From: Escherichia coli | GTDB lineage: Bacteria; Pseudomonadota; Gammaproteobacteria; Enterobacterales; Enterobacteriaceae | DNA length: 64,000 nt | NCBI GenBank assembly: GCA_902499925.1 | Contig: GCA_902499925.1_4130.1 | Reading direction: 5' to 3' (one strand) | Shown here: positions 50,684 through 55,284 of the stretch, piece by piece | Position numbering within the stretch: position 1 is the first letter of the stretch | How the letters are laid out: each line of letters opens with the position of its first letter | Notes under the pieces: generated by a model | Told to the model about the DNA's origin: nothing | The model's database searches: none | The model's input: the letters and a program-made list of their open reading frames with translations, nothing else | Program-made: the position numbers and the translations under genes

Positions 50684-50890
50684 TTACTTCCTATATATAA
50701 GCATTAACATATAGTAGTACTGATTATGCTGTACATTCTCTTTAATATTATAAGGGTCTATAGCAATCTCGGTACATCTGTTAAATGCATATCTATTAAA
50801 TGCCAGTACTATTATAGATCTAATCCATGCTTGGTCAGTCGGTGGTAGTTTACTTATATAGTACTCTTTATAATTTTTTATGTTCTGCAT
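50684..50890 (-). CDS. Family C paralog (small protein, N-terminal KEYY...KL motif)
   Basis: MQNIKNYKEYYISKL...YYYMLMLIYRK. Confidence 0.65.
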   Translation of the reverse strand: MQNIKNYKEYYISKLPPTDQAWIRSIIVLAFNRYAFNRCTEIAIDPYNIKENVQHNQYYYMLMLIYRK

Positions 50891-50901
50891 AGTATACCTT
50901 A

Positions 50902-51093
50902 TTATTTCAAAGTACCATATAGTACTCTTAATAGGAAGTAGTACGTATTAGAAATATCATTACTAGTTAAAACAATCTTTGTACACATATTAAATTCGTA
51001 TTGAGTCATTGCCAGGGGGATTAAATTGTTAACCCATGCTTGTTCGTTTTCTTTGAGTTTACTTATATAGAAATCTTTATGTTCTTTATTCAT
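50902..51093 (-). CDS. Family C paralog
   Basis: MNKEHKDFYISKL... Confidence 0.65.
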   Translation of the reverse strand: MNKEHKDFYISKLKENEQAWVNNLIPLAMTQYEFNMCTKIVLTSNDISNTYYFLLRVLYGTLK

Positions 51094-51295
51094 ATAGGAA
51101 TAGTATACCTATGATGCCGGAGTACATATTAGTACTGTTATTATTGGCGTTTGCGTTTAAAGTCATTTGAATACAATTATTGTAGCATACTCTGCCGAAA
51201 TATGTATCAGTACTTAAAGGTGCTGTAGTCCTTAGAAACATTTGTTCTGTGGGGCTGAGGTGTTTGGAATAGAATTCTTTATGTTCTTTATTCAT
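51086..51295 (-). CDS. Family C paralog
   Basis: MNKEHKEFYSKHLSPTEQMFL... Confidence 0.65.
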   Translation of the reverse strand: MNKEHKEFYSKHLSPTEQMFLRTTAPLSTDTYFGRVCYNNCIQMTLNANANNNSTNMYSGIIGILFLYE

Positions 51296-51300
51296 ATTAG

Positions 51301-51486
51301 TTAGTGTCTGTATATAAGTAATAGTAAGAATACGTACTGCACCTGTTCATCTTTAGTATTGAGTACTGTACGTATTGCGTCATGGAACAAGAATATAGTA
51401 CTTGGGTCATTAGAATTTAAGGGGTTTACGGGGACGGCGTGTTTGTAGTTCCCTTTAACAAATTGTATATAGTATTCTCTATGCAT
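51301..51486 (-). CDS. Family C paralog
   Basis: MHREYYIQFV...VFLLLLIYRH. Confidence 0.6.
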   Translation of the reverse strand: MHREYYIQFVKGNYKHAVPVNPLNSNDPSTIFLFHDAIRTVLNTKDEQVQYVFLLLLIYRH

Positions 51487-51487
51487 A

Positions 51488-51676
51488 TCAGTACCTATAT
51501 ATTAGGGCGAGAATGTAGTACAGTTTATATGTATTATAATCTGGGTTGATAGCACATAGTGTGTGGTAGTGGAATTGTTTGGTATTTTTCTTATCCTTGA
51601 TATCTATTGGGTTTAGTGGTATAAGCATTTGGGAGTTTAGTTCCAGATGGTTTAAGTAGAATTCTTTGTTATTCAT
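51488..51676 (-). CDS. Family C paralog
   Basis: MNNKEFYLNHL...YYILALIYRY. Confidence 0.65.
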   Translation of the reverse strand: MNNKEFYLNHLELNSQMLIPLNPIDIKDKKNTKQFHYHTLCAINPDYNTYKLYYILALIYRY

Positions 51677-51875
51677 AGAAGAATATTAGTCCCATTACGC
51701 CTGAGTATTGAATATTTTTGTTATTGTTTTCTAAAGCTTCTAGAGTAATACGTATACAATTATTAAAGCAATCTCTGGCGTGTGGTGTATCTAAACTTAA
51801 AGGTGATACACTCCTTAGAAACATTTGTTCTGATGCACTGAGGTGTTTGGTGTAAAATTCTTTCTGTTCGTTCAT
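51669..51875 (-). CDS. Family C paralog
   Basis: MNEQKEFYTKHLSASEQMFL...; close paralog of 51086..51295. Confidence 0.65.
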   Translation of the reverse strand: MNEQKEFYTKHLSASEQMFLRSVSPLSLDTPHARDCFNNCIRITLEALENNNKNIQYSGVMGLIFFYE

Positions 51876-51885
51876 ATTGGCCTCT

Positions 51886-52074
51886 TTAGTACACGAAAGC
51901 TAGGTACAGTGTATGATACAGTACTCGATGATAGCTATCAAAATCTAGTATACATGCTTTAGTGCACATAGTAAAGTACACTTTATCGTTTTGAGCATTG
52001 ATACCGCGAGGTTTATCTAATAGATTAGTACTGAGGTACATTGGGAAATATTTTGTGTAGTATTCTTTATGCAT
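51886..52074 (-). CDS. Family C paralog
   Basis: Start at MHKEYYTKYF (track ORF to 52119). Confidence 0.6.
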   Translation of the reverse strand: MHKEYYTKYFPMYLSTNLLDKPRGINAQNDKVYFTMCTKACILDFDSYHRVLYHTLYLAFVY

Positions 52075-52075
52075 A

Positions 52076-52258
52076 TTAGTACCTGAATATAAGTAGGATA
52101 GTGTTATATAATTGGTCATAACTACTACTATTTTCTATACTTCGTTCTATGCAGTTATTGAATCCCAGTACTGCCAAATCGTTATCCAGGGGGACTTTGT
52201 ATCTGGCGTAGTGTTCAAAAATGCTGGGGAGAAATTGTGTGTAGTATTCTTTGTGCAT
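52076..52258 (-). CDS. Family C paralog
   Basis: MHKEYYTQFL... Confidence 0.65.
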   Translation of the reverse strand: MHKEYYTQFLPSIFEHYARYKVPLDNDLAVLGFNNCIERSIENSSSYDQLYNTILLIFRY

Positions 52259-52259
52259 A

Positions 52260-53483: not shown

Positions 53484-53672
53484 TTACATAGAGATGAGTT
53501 TCAGTACATCAATATACATATAACGTTCAGATGACAGTACACGGGTAGTGATAATCTCAATCGATATATTTTTAATTCCATGTGCAGATGATTGATGGTG
53601 CTGAATAAATGAGTTGTGCATACTTTGTTCTATGTGGTTTAGTTTATTGAAGTAGTACTCAAAAGTGTTCAT
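53484..53672 (-). CDS. Family C paralog
   Basis: MNTFEYYFNKL...YIDVLKLISM. Confidence 0.65.
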   Translation of the reverse strand: MNTFEYYFNKLNHIEQSMHNSFIQHHQSSAHGIKNISIEIITTRVLSSERYMYIDVLKLISM

Positions 53673-53679
53673 GTCTACC

Positions 53680-53859
53680 TTAGATTGAGATTAGTTTAAG
53701 TACTTCTCTGTACGTGTACTTTTCGTTTTGTGCTTCTACTGTACATGATAGTAGGTATCGTTTTTTATCTCTTTTGTTCCCGACTGTGTAGTACCTTTGG
53801 AATTTATTATAGTTGTATCTATCTTTGTGCTGGAGGTTATAGATATAGAATTCTTGCAT
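53680..53859 (-). CDS. Family C paralog (~59 aa), not in ORF track
   Basis: Translation MQEFYIYNLQHKDRYNYNKFQRYY...YTYREVLKLISI; coordinates approximate. Confidence 0.45.
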   Translation of the reverse strand: MQEFYIYNLQHKDRYNYNKFQRYYTVGNKRDKKRYLLSCTVEAQNEKYTYREVLKLISI

Positions 53860-53867
53860 AGAGTACC

Positions 53868-54053
53868 TTAGATTGCTATCAGTTTGAGTACTTCAATATA
53901 TGTGCGGTACTCTGCTTTAATTAAATTTGTACACACTGTAAGGGAATTTCTTTGTATAAGTTTATTGCCGCTTTTATACGCATTTCTCCACACATAGAGA
54001 TGAGATCTTTCAGGCATAGATAGTTTATTTGTATAGTACTCAAATGTATTCAT
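53868..54053 (-). CDS. Family C paralog
   Basis: MNTFEYYTNKL...YIEVLKLIAI. Confidence 0.65.
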   Translation of the reverse strand: MNTFEYYTNKLSMPERSHLYVWRNAYKSGNKLIQRNSLTVCTNLIKAEYRTYIEVLKLIAI

Positions 54054-54061
54054 ATATTACC

Positions 54062-54265
54062 TCAAATAGAGATTAGTTTAAGTACTTCTCTGTATGTGTA
54101 CTTTTCGTTTTGTGCATCTCTTGTGCTTGTATATAGGTATCCTCGACGATATTTGTTGCTCCCGTTCTTGTAGTTGAATTCGAACTTATTGTAGATGAAT
54201 CTATCGCCAGGCTGTAATTTACTTAAGTACAATTCAATGCTCATAGTATTCTCTTTACATATCAA
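54062..54265 (-). CDS. Family C paralog
   Basis: ...MSIELYLSKL...YTYREVLKLISI. Confidence 0.65.
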   Translation of the reverse strand: MICKENTMSIELYLSKLQPGDRFIYNKFEFNYKNGSNKYRRGYLYTSTRDAQNEKYTYREVLKLISI

Positions 54266-54440
54266 TAAGTTTCAGTACTGCTCTGTACGTGTACTTAGTT
54301 GTTAGTGCTTCTTTTATAGCAATACAGAAGTAATGTTGTTTGTCTCTTATACTACCGCGTTTGTAGTACCATACATTGGAGTTGTGGGTGTACTTGTCCC
54401 TGTCGGATAGATTTTGGTAATAGTATAATATATGATTCAT
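54255..54440 (-). CDS. Family C paralog
   Basis: MNHILYYYQNL...YTYRAVLKLIDM. Confidence 0.65.
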   Translation of the reverse strand: MNHILYYYQNLSDRDKYTHNSNVWYYKRGSIRDKQHYFCIAIKEALTTKYTYRAVLKLIDM

Positions 54441-54649
54441 GGTAATGTAATTAGCCTTACTATATTAAAGTACTCGGTCCCTGGTACACCTTGTAGAATA
54501 TTATCAACTACATTTTCTTGGTGCAGGATTAATACATTCGGTGCGGTTCTTTTAAGGTTTTTTAAAGTACTGTATTCTTGTTTAAGGATGAACTGTACAT
54601 CTTTAGGGAGAATATCTAAGTAGTACTGGTGTATGTTCATAGTTTTCAT
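54437..54649 (-). CDS. Family C paralog
   Basis: MKTMNIHQYYLDIL... Confidence 0.6.
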   Translation of the reverse strand: MKTMNIHQYYLDILPKDVQFILKQEYSTLKNLKRTAPNVLILHQENVVDNILQGVPGTEYFNIVRLITLP

Positions 54650-54660
54650 ATAGTACTCTT

Positions 54661-54846
54661 TTAGAACTTAAAGATGAGGTTCATGATAGATAAGTACTTA
54701 GTTTCAGGAAATTGATGTTCTATTGCATAACGTGTCTCCAGTCTGAAGTCAAATTTATAAAAGGGACTATTCATATCCATAGGTTCATTGGGAAATGAAT
54801 CTCTGTATTGTTTGTGCAGCTTACTACAGTAGAATTCTTTATACAT
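54661..54846 (-). CDS. Family C paralog
   Basis: MYKEFYCSKL... Confidence 0.6.
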   Translation of the reverse strand: MYKEFYCSKLHKQYRDSFPNEPMDMNSPFYKFDFRLETRYAIEHQFPETKYLSIMNLIFKF

Positions 54847-54847
54847 A

Positions 54848-55060
54848 TTAGTGCTCGATTAAAAGGGTTAGGATGTAATAGTATTGCATACTTTCTACCC
54901 CTTGTACAGCATTTCTTATTTTATTATTCCTGTACGAGTTCAAGAGTTTAGGACAATGTTTGAATTGTATAAAATTATTTTGTGTATACAGTAGGCTTTC
55001 TCGTAGACCTTTTGTTGGTAGTGCATCAATGTAGTACTGTTCAATGTTCATAGTGTTCAT
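54848..55060 (-). CDS. Family C paralog
   Basis: MNTMNIEQYYIDAL... Confidence 0.6.
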   Translation of the reverse strand: MNTMNIEQYYIDALPTKGLRESLLYTQNNFIQFKHCPKLLNSYRNNKIRNAVQGVESMQYYYILTLLIEH

Positions 55061-55284
55061 AGAGCTACCAGTACTAAGATTTTTGATAATTGTTTATTGC
55101 TATTCCCGCAGATGTTGCTGTGTAAAATACTCACTACAAGGGTATCAAGTGCATTGTTCAGCATAAGGTTACATCCAGTACTGTTATGTGTTTTTAGCTC
55201 AATTAGCCACGATTGGTCCGCGAGAAACTTCCCGTACTCTAGTTCATTTAGAGTATTAATGTAGTACTTAAGTGTAGTTGTCAT
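55057..55284 (-). CDS. Family C-like paralog, first gene of array
   Basis: MTTTLKYYINTL... Confidence 0.55.
   Translation of the reverse strand: MTTTLKYYINTLNELEYGKFLADQSWLIELKTHNSTGCNLMLNNALDTLVVSILHSNICGNSNKQLSKILVLVAL

Follow-up and report, generated by a model that had tools for sequence, protein, structure and literature searches.

A tandem array of diverged small paralogs beside the terminal repeat of Asteriusvirus jumbo phages: a candidate early host-interaction operon

In the host-takeover module of phage SPO1 and the pre-early region of phage T5, early timing and take-over were shown experimentally. Paralog arrays that lie near terminal repeats and change by unequal recombination ("genomic accordions") are familiar from the multigene families (MGFs) of African swine fever virus (ASFV) and the host-range families of poxviruses. 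Tandem ORFan families and clusters of small early genes are also known from large phages. In the related Rak2-like phage CBB, RpoD-like promoters concentrate over short open reading frames (ORFs) near or inside the terminal repeat, and the authors suspected such ORFs to be early host-take-over genes (PMC5259590). Hua et al. (2017), in connection with a ratchet idea, proposed that jumbo genomes can arise through tandem duplication; the duplication in phage 121Q received one sentence there, without analysis (PMC5646251). Here we report on array C, a tandem array at positions 50684-55284 of a 64,000-nucleotide stretch of DNA (contig GCA_902499925.1_4130.1 of an assembly labelled Escherichia coli; the whole stretch is called the window below). 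The array region shows 99.5% identity to Escherichia phage WPEC5 (Asteriusvirus, PBECO4/121Q type), and ~30 further PBECO4/121Q-type jumbo coliphages of the genus Asteriusvirus match it at 88-99% identity. We consider it highly probable that the small ORFs of the array encode a real, expressed protein family (family C) that has been shaped by unequal recombination, and we lean with some caution towards regarding the array as an early-expressed operon of diversifying host-interaction proteins.

Array C is filled by 20 back-to-back minus-strand ORFs of 57-75 amino acids (aa), arranged around one unrelated ORF of 219 aa. The small genes were numbered C01 to C20 along the direction of transcription (Table 1). 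Neighboring genes are spaced by -11 to +11 nucleotides (nt), and all 21 start with ATG. A stretch containing AGG, GAG, or GGA is present 5-12 nt upstream of the start in 13 of the 21 genes; the remaining eight overlap the preceding stop codon or start within 8 nt of it, which suggests translational coupling. The initial annotation, made from the DNA letters and a list of ORFs, had proposed a third tandem paralog family of ~20 small proteins beside an array of RCC1-repeat genes and had given a size range of 57-77 aa. The family was borne out, with significant homology for 19 of the 20 ORFs, and so were the small minus-strand ORFs, but the upper size limit had to be lowered to 75 aa, because C14, C11, and C06 begin at internal ATGs according to the WPEC5 annotation and the N-terminus of the family. 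The two members suspected to fall below a 60-aa cutoff were found as C08 and C10, with 59 aa each. The same genes are annotated as hypothetical coding sequences in WPEC5, 121Q (gp249-265), JNE01, slurp01, and fEgEco12.

Pairwise comparison with BLASTP, which gave E values down to 2e-26 within the family, yielded the clusters g1 (C12-C20), g2 (C05-C10), and g3 (C02 and C04), with C01, C03, and C11 as singletons. A hidden Markov model (HMM) of C12-C20 recovered C03 and C11 (E values in Table 1), the best of 3,000 shuffled decoys reaching 0.0045. When built from the window sequences, the g1 HMM did not separate g2 from decoys, and a profile-profile comparison of g1 and g2 with hhalign that used the window sequences only (probability 59.5%, E 9e-5) was no more than suggestive. 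Non-redundant profiles were then pooled from seven phages (the window plus 121Q, slurp01, TH47, SD-2_S15, JNE01, and Turkey5), and 100 column shuffles served as controls. With the pooled profiles, g1 aligned to g2 over 54 columns with a probability of 95.9% and an E value of 6e-9 (score 41.2 versus 8.9 ± 1.8 for shuffled profiles, maximum 16.0), and to g3 over 55 columns with a probability of 91% and an E value of 1e-6 (score 32.4 versus 9.2 ± 1.7, maximum 15.7). Both scores lie 13-18 standard deviations above the column-shuffled controls. Bridging sequences that match two subgroup HMMs at once are present in JNE01 and TH47. By the HMM and pooled profile-profile results, 19 of the 20 ORFs thus form one superfamily with three subgroups. 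The initial annotation had named significance on formal alignment as one test of its proposal, and the similarity was significant by pairwise, HMM, and profile-profile comparison. For C01, the hhalign comparison with the merged family was not significant (score 15.3 versus 7.9 ± 1.3 for shuffled profiles, over only 27 columns); this ORF is a plausible but unproven member, probably a distant one.

Two other paralog families of the window, families A and B (Table 1), were compared with array C. A relationship of family C to family B was rejected, since hhalign gave probabilities of 0.1-1.8% across four family C profiles, and the family A profile had no significant match among the array C genes (best E 0.045).

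Both motifs described at the outset are present, K-E-Y/F-Y...L near the N-terminus and a hydrophobic/aromatic helix at the C-terminus, and Y8 is invariant. Two conserved cysteines, which had also been proposed, were not found: four members contain no cysteine, 12 contain one, and four contain two, and a single position is semi-conserved (C39, in 25 of 42 non-redundant g1 sequences). In these 42 sequences the conserved columns are K5, E6, Y/F7, Y8, L12, Q17, P24, F36, C39, T/I40, L/I44, Y53, Y54, I56, L57, L59, I60, F/Y61, and Y63; most other columns are near random, and entropy, averaged by segment, peaks in loops and turns. The core common to family C comprises the N-terminal motif, F36, C/T39-40, and the C-terminal helix Y-Y-x-I-L-x-L-I-Y/F-R/K-Y. 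Such a pattern is expected of proteins with a conserved hydrophobic/aromatic core and free surfaces. Structures were predicted with AlphaFold2 from paralog alignments for one representative each of g1 (C12) and g2 (C08). The C12 model (mean predicted local distance difference test score [pLDDT] 91.9, predicted template modeling score [pTM] 0.78) contains helices at residues 4-9, 14-17, 30-45, and 49-62, and the C08 model (pLDDT 93.1, pTM 0.75) at residues 2-7, 11-26, 29-43, and 49-58. Both thus show four helices in the same order; they differ in the second element, which is a long helix in g2 and combines a short helix with a Pro-rich loop in g1. The tyrosine content of the family is 10.1%, and the isoelectric point (pI) ranges from 5.5 to 9.6, with four of the six g2 members being basic (pI 9.4-9.6). 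The N-termini are polar, no signal peptide is present, and the grand average of hydropathy is negative for 19 of the 20 proteins; the proteins look soluble. Membrane proteins of the holin/spanin-like or exclusion type were rejected as candidates, as the maximal 19-residue Kyte-Doolittle value was at most 1.13, versus a usual threshold of ~1.6.

Orthologous pairs gave pooled ratios of nonsynonymous to synonymous substitutions (dN/dS) of 0.41 (121Q), 0.43 (slurp01), 0.61 (TH47), and 0.31 (JNE01), and third codon positions change more often. These values of 0.3-0.6 indicate purifying but relaxed selection; some ortholog pairs exceed 1 (C20 at 1.6). In the genomes inspected the reading frames are intact, and phages differ in their gene content by whole-gene units. 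Within the family, paralogs share 20-60% identity, and 14-20 copies so diverged point to old duplications kept under selection. Indirect support for expression comes from the purifying selection, the ATG starts, the ribosome-binding sites or translational coupling, and the conserved putative promoter described below.

The number of copies differs between phages: 20 were counted in the window and slurp01, 16 in 121Q, 15 in SD-2_S15, JNE01, and Turkey5, and 14 in TH47. Several positions are stable, namely those of C01 and C02 at the 5′ end, of C10 just ahead of the 219-aa gene, and, toward the 3′ end, of C17 and C20. Orthologs of C01 were found in all five close phages examined, and the position of C10 is among the best conserved in the array. 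The other members are gained or lost between phages, and some members of other phages lack an ortholog in the window. A gene of the C15 type holds position 3 in 121Q, slurp01, and SD-2_S15 but position 15 in both TH47 and the window. In two metagenome contigs, C12-C13-C14 is replaced by a hybrid gene, P0004, in which the N-terminal 55 residues of C12 are joined to the C-terminus of C14 at a common RVLYH stretch, a direct footprint of unequal crossing-over. The C12/C14 hybrid is found in the European Nucleotide Archive (ENA) metagenome contigs L013 and L014, where the order is also changed and the 219-aa gene is immediately followed by a C13-like gene. The hybrid and the reordered contigs indicate that the array is being reshuffled in the wild. 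The junctions between units (...TAC TAA T ATG CAT AAA GAA TAC TAC) are 62-88% identical over 25-66 nt and offer homology for unequal exchange.

The variation in copy number from 14 to 20, with many members missing from one phage or another, would also suit neutral or near-neutral stuffer duplicates that fill an enlarged capsid and persist without a specific function while slowly decaying. The relaxed dN/dS with single pairs above 1 fits this explanation as well, and Hua et al. recorded an array of >30 genes in 121Q (PMC5646251). The pooled dN/dS, however, is not ~1, and nearly every copy is intact in the genomes inspected, the protein database containing one truncated variant of 41 aa. Core residues are kept across paralogs of 20-30% identity, the folds are confidently predicted, and the family persists with 15 copies in the divergent JNE01/Turkey5 lineage. 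We therefore regard filler as improbable.

Relatives of family C were found in a narrow group of phages. A tblastn search returned 36 phage records only, from 32 Escherichia and 4 Salmonella phages, and the records inspected were classified as Asteriusvirus or were close matches to it. A word-seeded profile search of 5.8 billion proteins gave 49 clusters, all of them close relatives, and an exhaustive HMMER search of 1.84 billion representatives gave 36 matches, all covering proteins of 59-75 aa end-to-end except for a 41-aa fragment and a match of 531 aa; the latter consisted of multiple stretches and was judged to be spurious. The family relatives from these billion-protein searches were 41-84 aa long, and those with a named source or a long contig were of the Asteriusvirus type. 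No family C gene was found beside the RCC1-like genes of GAP32 and fHe-Yen9-04. As far as these databases reach, the family is restricted to the genus Asteriusvirus. Five members matched PHROG 11711 end-to-end (E values in Table 1), and C01, C02, C05, and C08 matched no PHROG at E ≤0.01. This PHROG carries no function and covers g1 only, whereas the link to g2 and g3 required the pooled profiles. Pfam gave no family C match above the cut-off, and NCBIfam gave none. The best PDB profile match had an E value of 0.17, and a fold search of BFVD returned family members only. Our literature searches found no description of family C, and the same holds for the unity of its three subgroups, its position at the terminal repeat, and its turnover.

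The confinement to one lineage and the fast turnover would also agree with a role in competition between phages or in self-protection, by superinfection exclusion or as toxin neutralizers of the immunity type, rather than with factors acting on host machinery. In polymorphic toxin systems, arrays of immunity genes are typically tandem and encode small, helical, diversifying proteins, which the array resembles. But no toxin-like gene is adjacent, the embedded ORFan has no toxin domain, and, besides the lack of NCBIfam matches, the best PADLOC hit (E 0.0027, for 1 of the 20 members) was not significant after correction for multiple testing. We consider a role of this kind unlikely, and more so than filler.

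Array C looks like one operon, as the genes lie head-to-tail on a single strand behind one putative upstream promoter, with no sigma70 site of at least 11/12 consensus positions and no terminator-like site inside the array. The putative sigma70-type promoter is followed by a ribosome-binding sequence in front of C01 (Table 1). Its -35 hexamer TTGACA is invariant in the seven phages aligned, and the -10 hexamers of JNE01 (TACAAT) and Turkey5 (TAGAAT) are nearer to the consensus than that of the window. Downstream of C20, a stable RNA hairpin represents a candidate 3′ end or stabilizer of the operon transcript; the 106-nt stretch 50585-50690 has a minimum free energy of -29.3 kcal/mol (z -4.7 versus 200 shuffles).

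The genome termini of phage fEgEco12 were mapped by PhageTerm and restriction digests (PMC13070987). Its direct terminal repeat of 20,993 bp aligns to ~29689-50381 of the window, so that array C makes up the final 4.6 kb of unique sequence. Transcription of the array runs toward the right-hand copy of the repeat, whose mapped start lies 303 bp beyond the end of the array; family B starts ~70 bp past the other repeat boundary (~29689). On the minus strand, the window contains 27 near-consensus sigma70 sites (at least 11/12 positions) versus 1.9 expected. Eighteen of these are located in the terminal repeat, and 11 of the 18 are perfect (TTGACA-16/17-TATAAT). AGTACT(G/T) is found within 0-1 nt of the -10 hexamer in 12 of the 18 repeat promoters. 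From these features, the terminal-repeat promoters look like a dedicated early promoter class. The 12 promoters follow the scheme TTGACA-N9-10-AGTACT(G/T)-TATAAT, often with agtttacatca thereafter, and near-consensus sites on the minus strand also occur at 1463-25597.

The heptamer ATAAATA, which is located upstream of several 121Q structural genes and is late-promoter-like, is absent from the coding strand of the array. One of its two copies in the window precedes the first RCC1 gene by 34 nt; this copy is not kept in six other phages, and TGATATAAT is invariant there. The window has a single TATAAATA (14.7 expected), on the plus strand at 55356-55372. It precedes the first RCC1 gene by 28 nt, is followed by the extended -10 TGATATAAT, and is likewise missing at this place from six other phages. 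As this TATAAATA lies on the opposite strand and faces the RCC1 genes, a late promoter of the T4 type was rejected for the array. These data bear on the idea that the array products are virion components, for example small proteins that are internal, ejected, or decorate the capsid and are produced along with the RCC1-like virion proteins. The adjacency of the array to the RCC1-like genes is conserved, the RCC1-like proteins gp549 and gp551 are listed in the part of the phAPEC6 virion proteome table examined here, and mass spectrometry easily misses small proteins. However, that part of the table lists no family C protein, the array is divergent from the RCC1 genes with a promoter of the sigma70 type, and the ATAAATA distribution likewise sets the array apart. 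A virion role therefore appears very unlikely.

The array is also unusually rich in two palindromes. In the 64-kb window, CAGTACTG has 65 copies versus ~1 expected, and none of 100 shuffles came close. AGTACT occurs 284 times versus ~21 expected and is the sole strongly over-represented palindromic hexamer (13-fold; the next reaches 2.9-fold). The densest zones are 48786-50480, all across 29689-50381, and array C. The enrichment of AGTACT and CAGTACTG was 5.4-fold and 46-fold in the 121Q structural region, 20-fold and 149-fold in the terminal repeat, and 26-fold and 181-fold in array C. In the array genes, AGTACT is present in all three frames, and tyrosine is encoded by 81 TAC versus 48 TAT codons (25 versus 69 in the RCC1 genes). 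Between phages, the sites are conserved at 59-94%, versus 53-65% for other hexamers. The enrichment, the sites in three frames, the TAC bias, and the conservation would be compatible with a DNA-level feature, a dense protein-binding field in which the ORFs are incidental. Yet the motif is enriched genome-wide, bona fide structural genes included, and is thus no argument against coding; moreover, ORF integrity, ATG starts, unit-sized insertions and deletions, dN/dS below 1, and confident folds indicate proteins. We give a purely DNA-level explanation hardly any credence. As to its own role, CAGTACTG could serve as an operator or binding site, or else as a target of modification; a text search for it returned only unrelated primer sequences among the matches listed. 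We consider its genome-wide over-representation the most interesting by-product of this study.

According to the reading that we prefer, an early operon of diversifying host-interaction proteins, the host RNA polymerase would transcribe the array early and as one unit, and the array would share the early program of the adjacent terminal-repeat region packed with sigma70 promoters. The paralogs would have one scaffold in common and differ in the surface that each of them offers to its target, which would itself be different or a variant. Unequal recombination yields the 14-20 copies per phage, the displaced members, and the hybrid genes. The early transcription and the proposed interaction with the host are suggested by the promoter type, the promoter-dense adjacent repeat, the small size, the conserved core with a variable surface, the strain turnover, and analogy with early modules of the SPO1/T5 type and with the terminal multigene families of large eukaryotic DNA viruses. 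A specific function in take-over, anti-defence, or host range is a tentative proposal, and we hold it with clearly less confidence than the early operon as a whole. Several observations weigh against the preferred reading. The putative array promoter of this window agrees with the consensus at only 10 of 12 positions; in the 48-56 kb region as a whole, promoter-like sites are no more numerous than in shuffles. Individual members are dispensable in nature, which fits low-value duplicates too, and part of the sequence conservation in the array may be at the DNA level, given the 26-fold enrichment of AGTACT in all frames. A Foldseek search of BFVD with the g2 model returned no g1 member. Finally, our literature searches found no transcriptome, ribosome-profiling data, infected-cell proteome, or functional data for an Asteriusvirus, and no transcriptome of a Rak2-like phage.

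The ORF embedded in the array had initially been taken for a gene like those of family A. Neither phmmer, jackhmmer, nor hhalign showed such a relation, and it was rejected: the best non-self E value in phmmer was 0.26, jackhmmer recruited nothing from the ORFs of the window, and hhalign of the family A profile with the 219-aa protein gave a probability of 0.6%. The gene is unrelated to family C as well, and its location at the boundary of g2 and g1 is fixed in all genomes. The protein is basic (pI 9.2), contains a KKRNKKKKSRN patch, and is an ORFan found in Asteriusvirus only, where relatives share 65-98% identity; in the Salmonella phages SD-2_S15 and SD-6_S16 it is shortened to 120-137 aa.

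Paralog arrays occupy almost the whole window (Table 1). BLAST divided 37 family A ORFs of 115-230 aa into clusters of 11 and 6 plus 20 singletons, and a profile of the largest cluster reached 44 ORFs of the window at E ≤1; family A may represent several families or one very diverged family. The sign of the GC skew changes at ~50 kb and not at the strand switch at 55.3 kb, and on the coding strand of array C, C exceeds G, opposite to the other minus-strand genes of the window. In array C only 18% of the first codon positions are G, because the proteins are poor in Gly, Ala, Val, and Asp and rich in Tyr, Asn, Leu, Ile, and Lys. The fEgEco12 genome end (window 50361-50381) begins with the hairpin GGCAGAGGAAGTCTGCC, and the interval 50381-50684 contains three CAGTACTG copies and 10-nt repeats of the ATGATTACAT type; 50361-50684 is a possible recognition region for the terminase or for packaging. 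Iteron-like repeats, ~12 copies of an 8-nt unit (TAGCCGTC / TAGCCATC) in tandem, are found at 49475-49573. They belong to the first 1.7 kb of the terminal repeat, a stretch that is poor in genes and also has plus-strand promoter-like sites at 49009 and 49349. A scan of the entire window gave no Rfam matches, and no tRNAs were found in it.

Table 1. Features of the window, with the genes of array C in the order of transcription (g1-g3, family C subgroups)
Feature	Position	Strand	Description
Family A	1-23 kb	-	Heterogeneous ORFs of 115-230 aa
Family B	23308-29621	-	26 overlapping or abutting ORFs of 70-92 aa; common LGTN(Y/H)QE motif
fEgEco12 genome base 1 (left end)	50381		Located by blastn of fEgEco12 1-2500 and 19500-22500
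Stable RNA hairpin	50601-50640	-	45-85 nt past the last stop codon, without U-tract
Array C (family C)	50684-55284	-	20 small ORFs and one 219-aa ORF
C01	55057-55284	-	75 aa; first gene of the putative operon; KYYINTL N-terminus, hydrophobic C-terminus
C02	54848-55060	-	70 aa, g3; BLASTP to C04 E 1e-7
C03	54661-54846	-	61 aa, outlying g1; g1 HMM E 1.5e-8; PHROG 11711 E 2e-15
C04	54437-54649	-	70 aa, g3; missing from 121Q, SD-2_S15, and TH47
C05	54255-54440	-	61 aa, g2; basic, pI 9.4
C06	54062-54244	-	60 aa, g2; internal ATG start, listed TTG ORF extended to 54265
C07	53868-54053	-	61 aa, g2
C08	53680-53859	-	59 aa, g2; representative for structure prediction
C09	53484-53672	-	62 aa, g2
C10	53296-53475	-	59 aa, g2; ortholog of 55% identity even in JNE01 and Turkey5
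Embedded ORFan	52626-53285	-	219 aa; PHROG 29152; between the g2 and g1 blocks
C11	52460-52633	-	57 aa, outlying g1; corrected start; 8-nt overlap with the 219-aa gene; g1 HMM E 1.1e-6
C12	52260-52451	-	63 aa, g1; representative for structure prediction; PHROG 11711 E 1.4e-27
C13	52076-52258	-	60 aa, g1
C14	51886-52074	-	62 aa, g1; start moved to internal ATG
C15	51669-51875	-	68 aa, g1; PHROG 11711 E 7e-12
C16	51488-51676	-	62 aa, g1; PHROG 11711 E 1.8e-9
C17	51301-51486	-	61 aa, g1; kept in all genomes examined
C18	51086-51295	-	69 aa, g1; nearest paralog C15 (59% identity, E 2e-26)
C19	50902-51093	-	63 aa, g1
C20	50684-50890	-	68 aa, g1; final gene of the array; PHROG 11711 E 3e-19
Ribosome-binding AAGGAG	55298-55293	-	Followed by the C01 ATG at 55284
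Putative sigma70-type promoter	55310-55338	-	TTGACA 55338-55333, 17-nt spacer with CAGTACTG, TACTAT 55315-55310
RCC1-repeat genes	55391 onwards	+	Divergent from array C; Pfam RCC1 and RCC1_2 above cut-off

Most genes of jumbo phages are ORFans, and the role of their extra 200 kb is in question. Array C provides a compact, well-delimited test case: what seems to be one fold is present in ~20 diverged copies behind a single apparent promoter, phages in nature differ between 14 and 20 copies and include a hybrid unit, and the location adjoins the terminal repeat. If a host-range or anti-defence role is true, these phages use the "accordion" multigene strategy of large eukaryotic DNA viruses, and the array could help to predict the host range of Asteriusvirus phages proposed for therapy. 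If the copies are dispensable, the array supports the capsid-ratchet "filler" model of jumbo-genome growth.

Among the described systems, the tandem arrays of phages 121Q and G (Hua et al., 2017; PMC5646251) represent the same lineage and phenomenon, namely expansion by tandem duplication, although copy number and similarity of the 121Q array fit another array of the window, most likely family B or family A, better than family C. With the SPO1 module, the T5 pre-early region, and the short ORFs of CBB, array C shares ORFs of <100 aa and host-type promoters in or beside a long direct terminal repeat; here, the likeness concerns sequence features alone. The module genes of SPO1 and T5 are mostly unrelated to each other, whereas array C seems to repeat one fold ~20 times. 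Anti-CRISPR and anti-restriction loci are likewise small, fast-evolving, lineage-restricted, and, as is probable for array C, early, but array C has no sequence or fold match to known members of such loci, and no Aca-like regulator was recognized. As in ASFV and the poxviruses, the array adjoins a terminal repeat, and copy-number variation between isolates and recombinant units were found. The proteins and hosts are unrelated, however, the repeats are inverted there and direct here, and host-range or immune-evasion functions are demonstrated there and hypothetical here. By this analogy, and as a speculation that we think unlikely to hold in full, the array might be a phage counterpart of the poxvirus and ASFV multigene families, a growing and shrinking set of early small helical proteins in which each paralog neutralizes a different defence or host-range barrier. 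The composition of the array would then set which E. coli and Salmonella strains an Asteriusvirus infects. Together with the three further paralog arrays and with CAGTACTG, which is over-represented genome-wide and has sites in the putative early promoters, the array would make up a single terminal "adaptation zone" in these jumbo phages.

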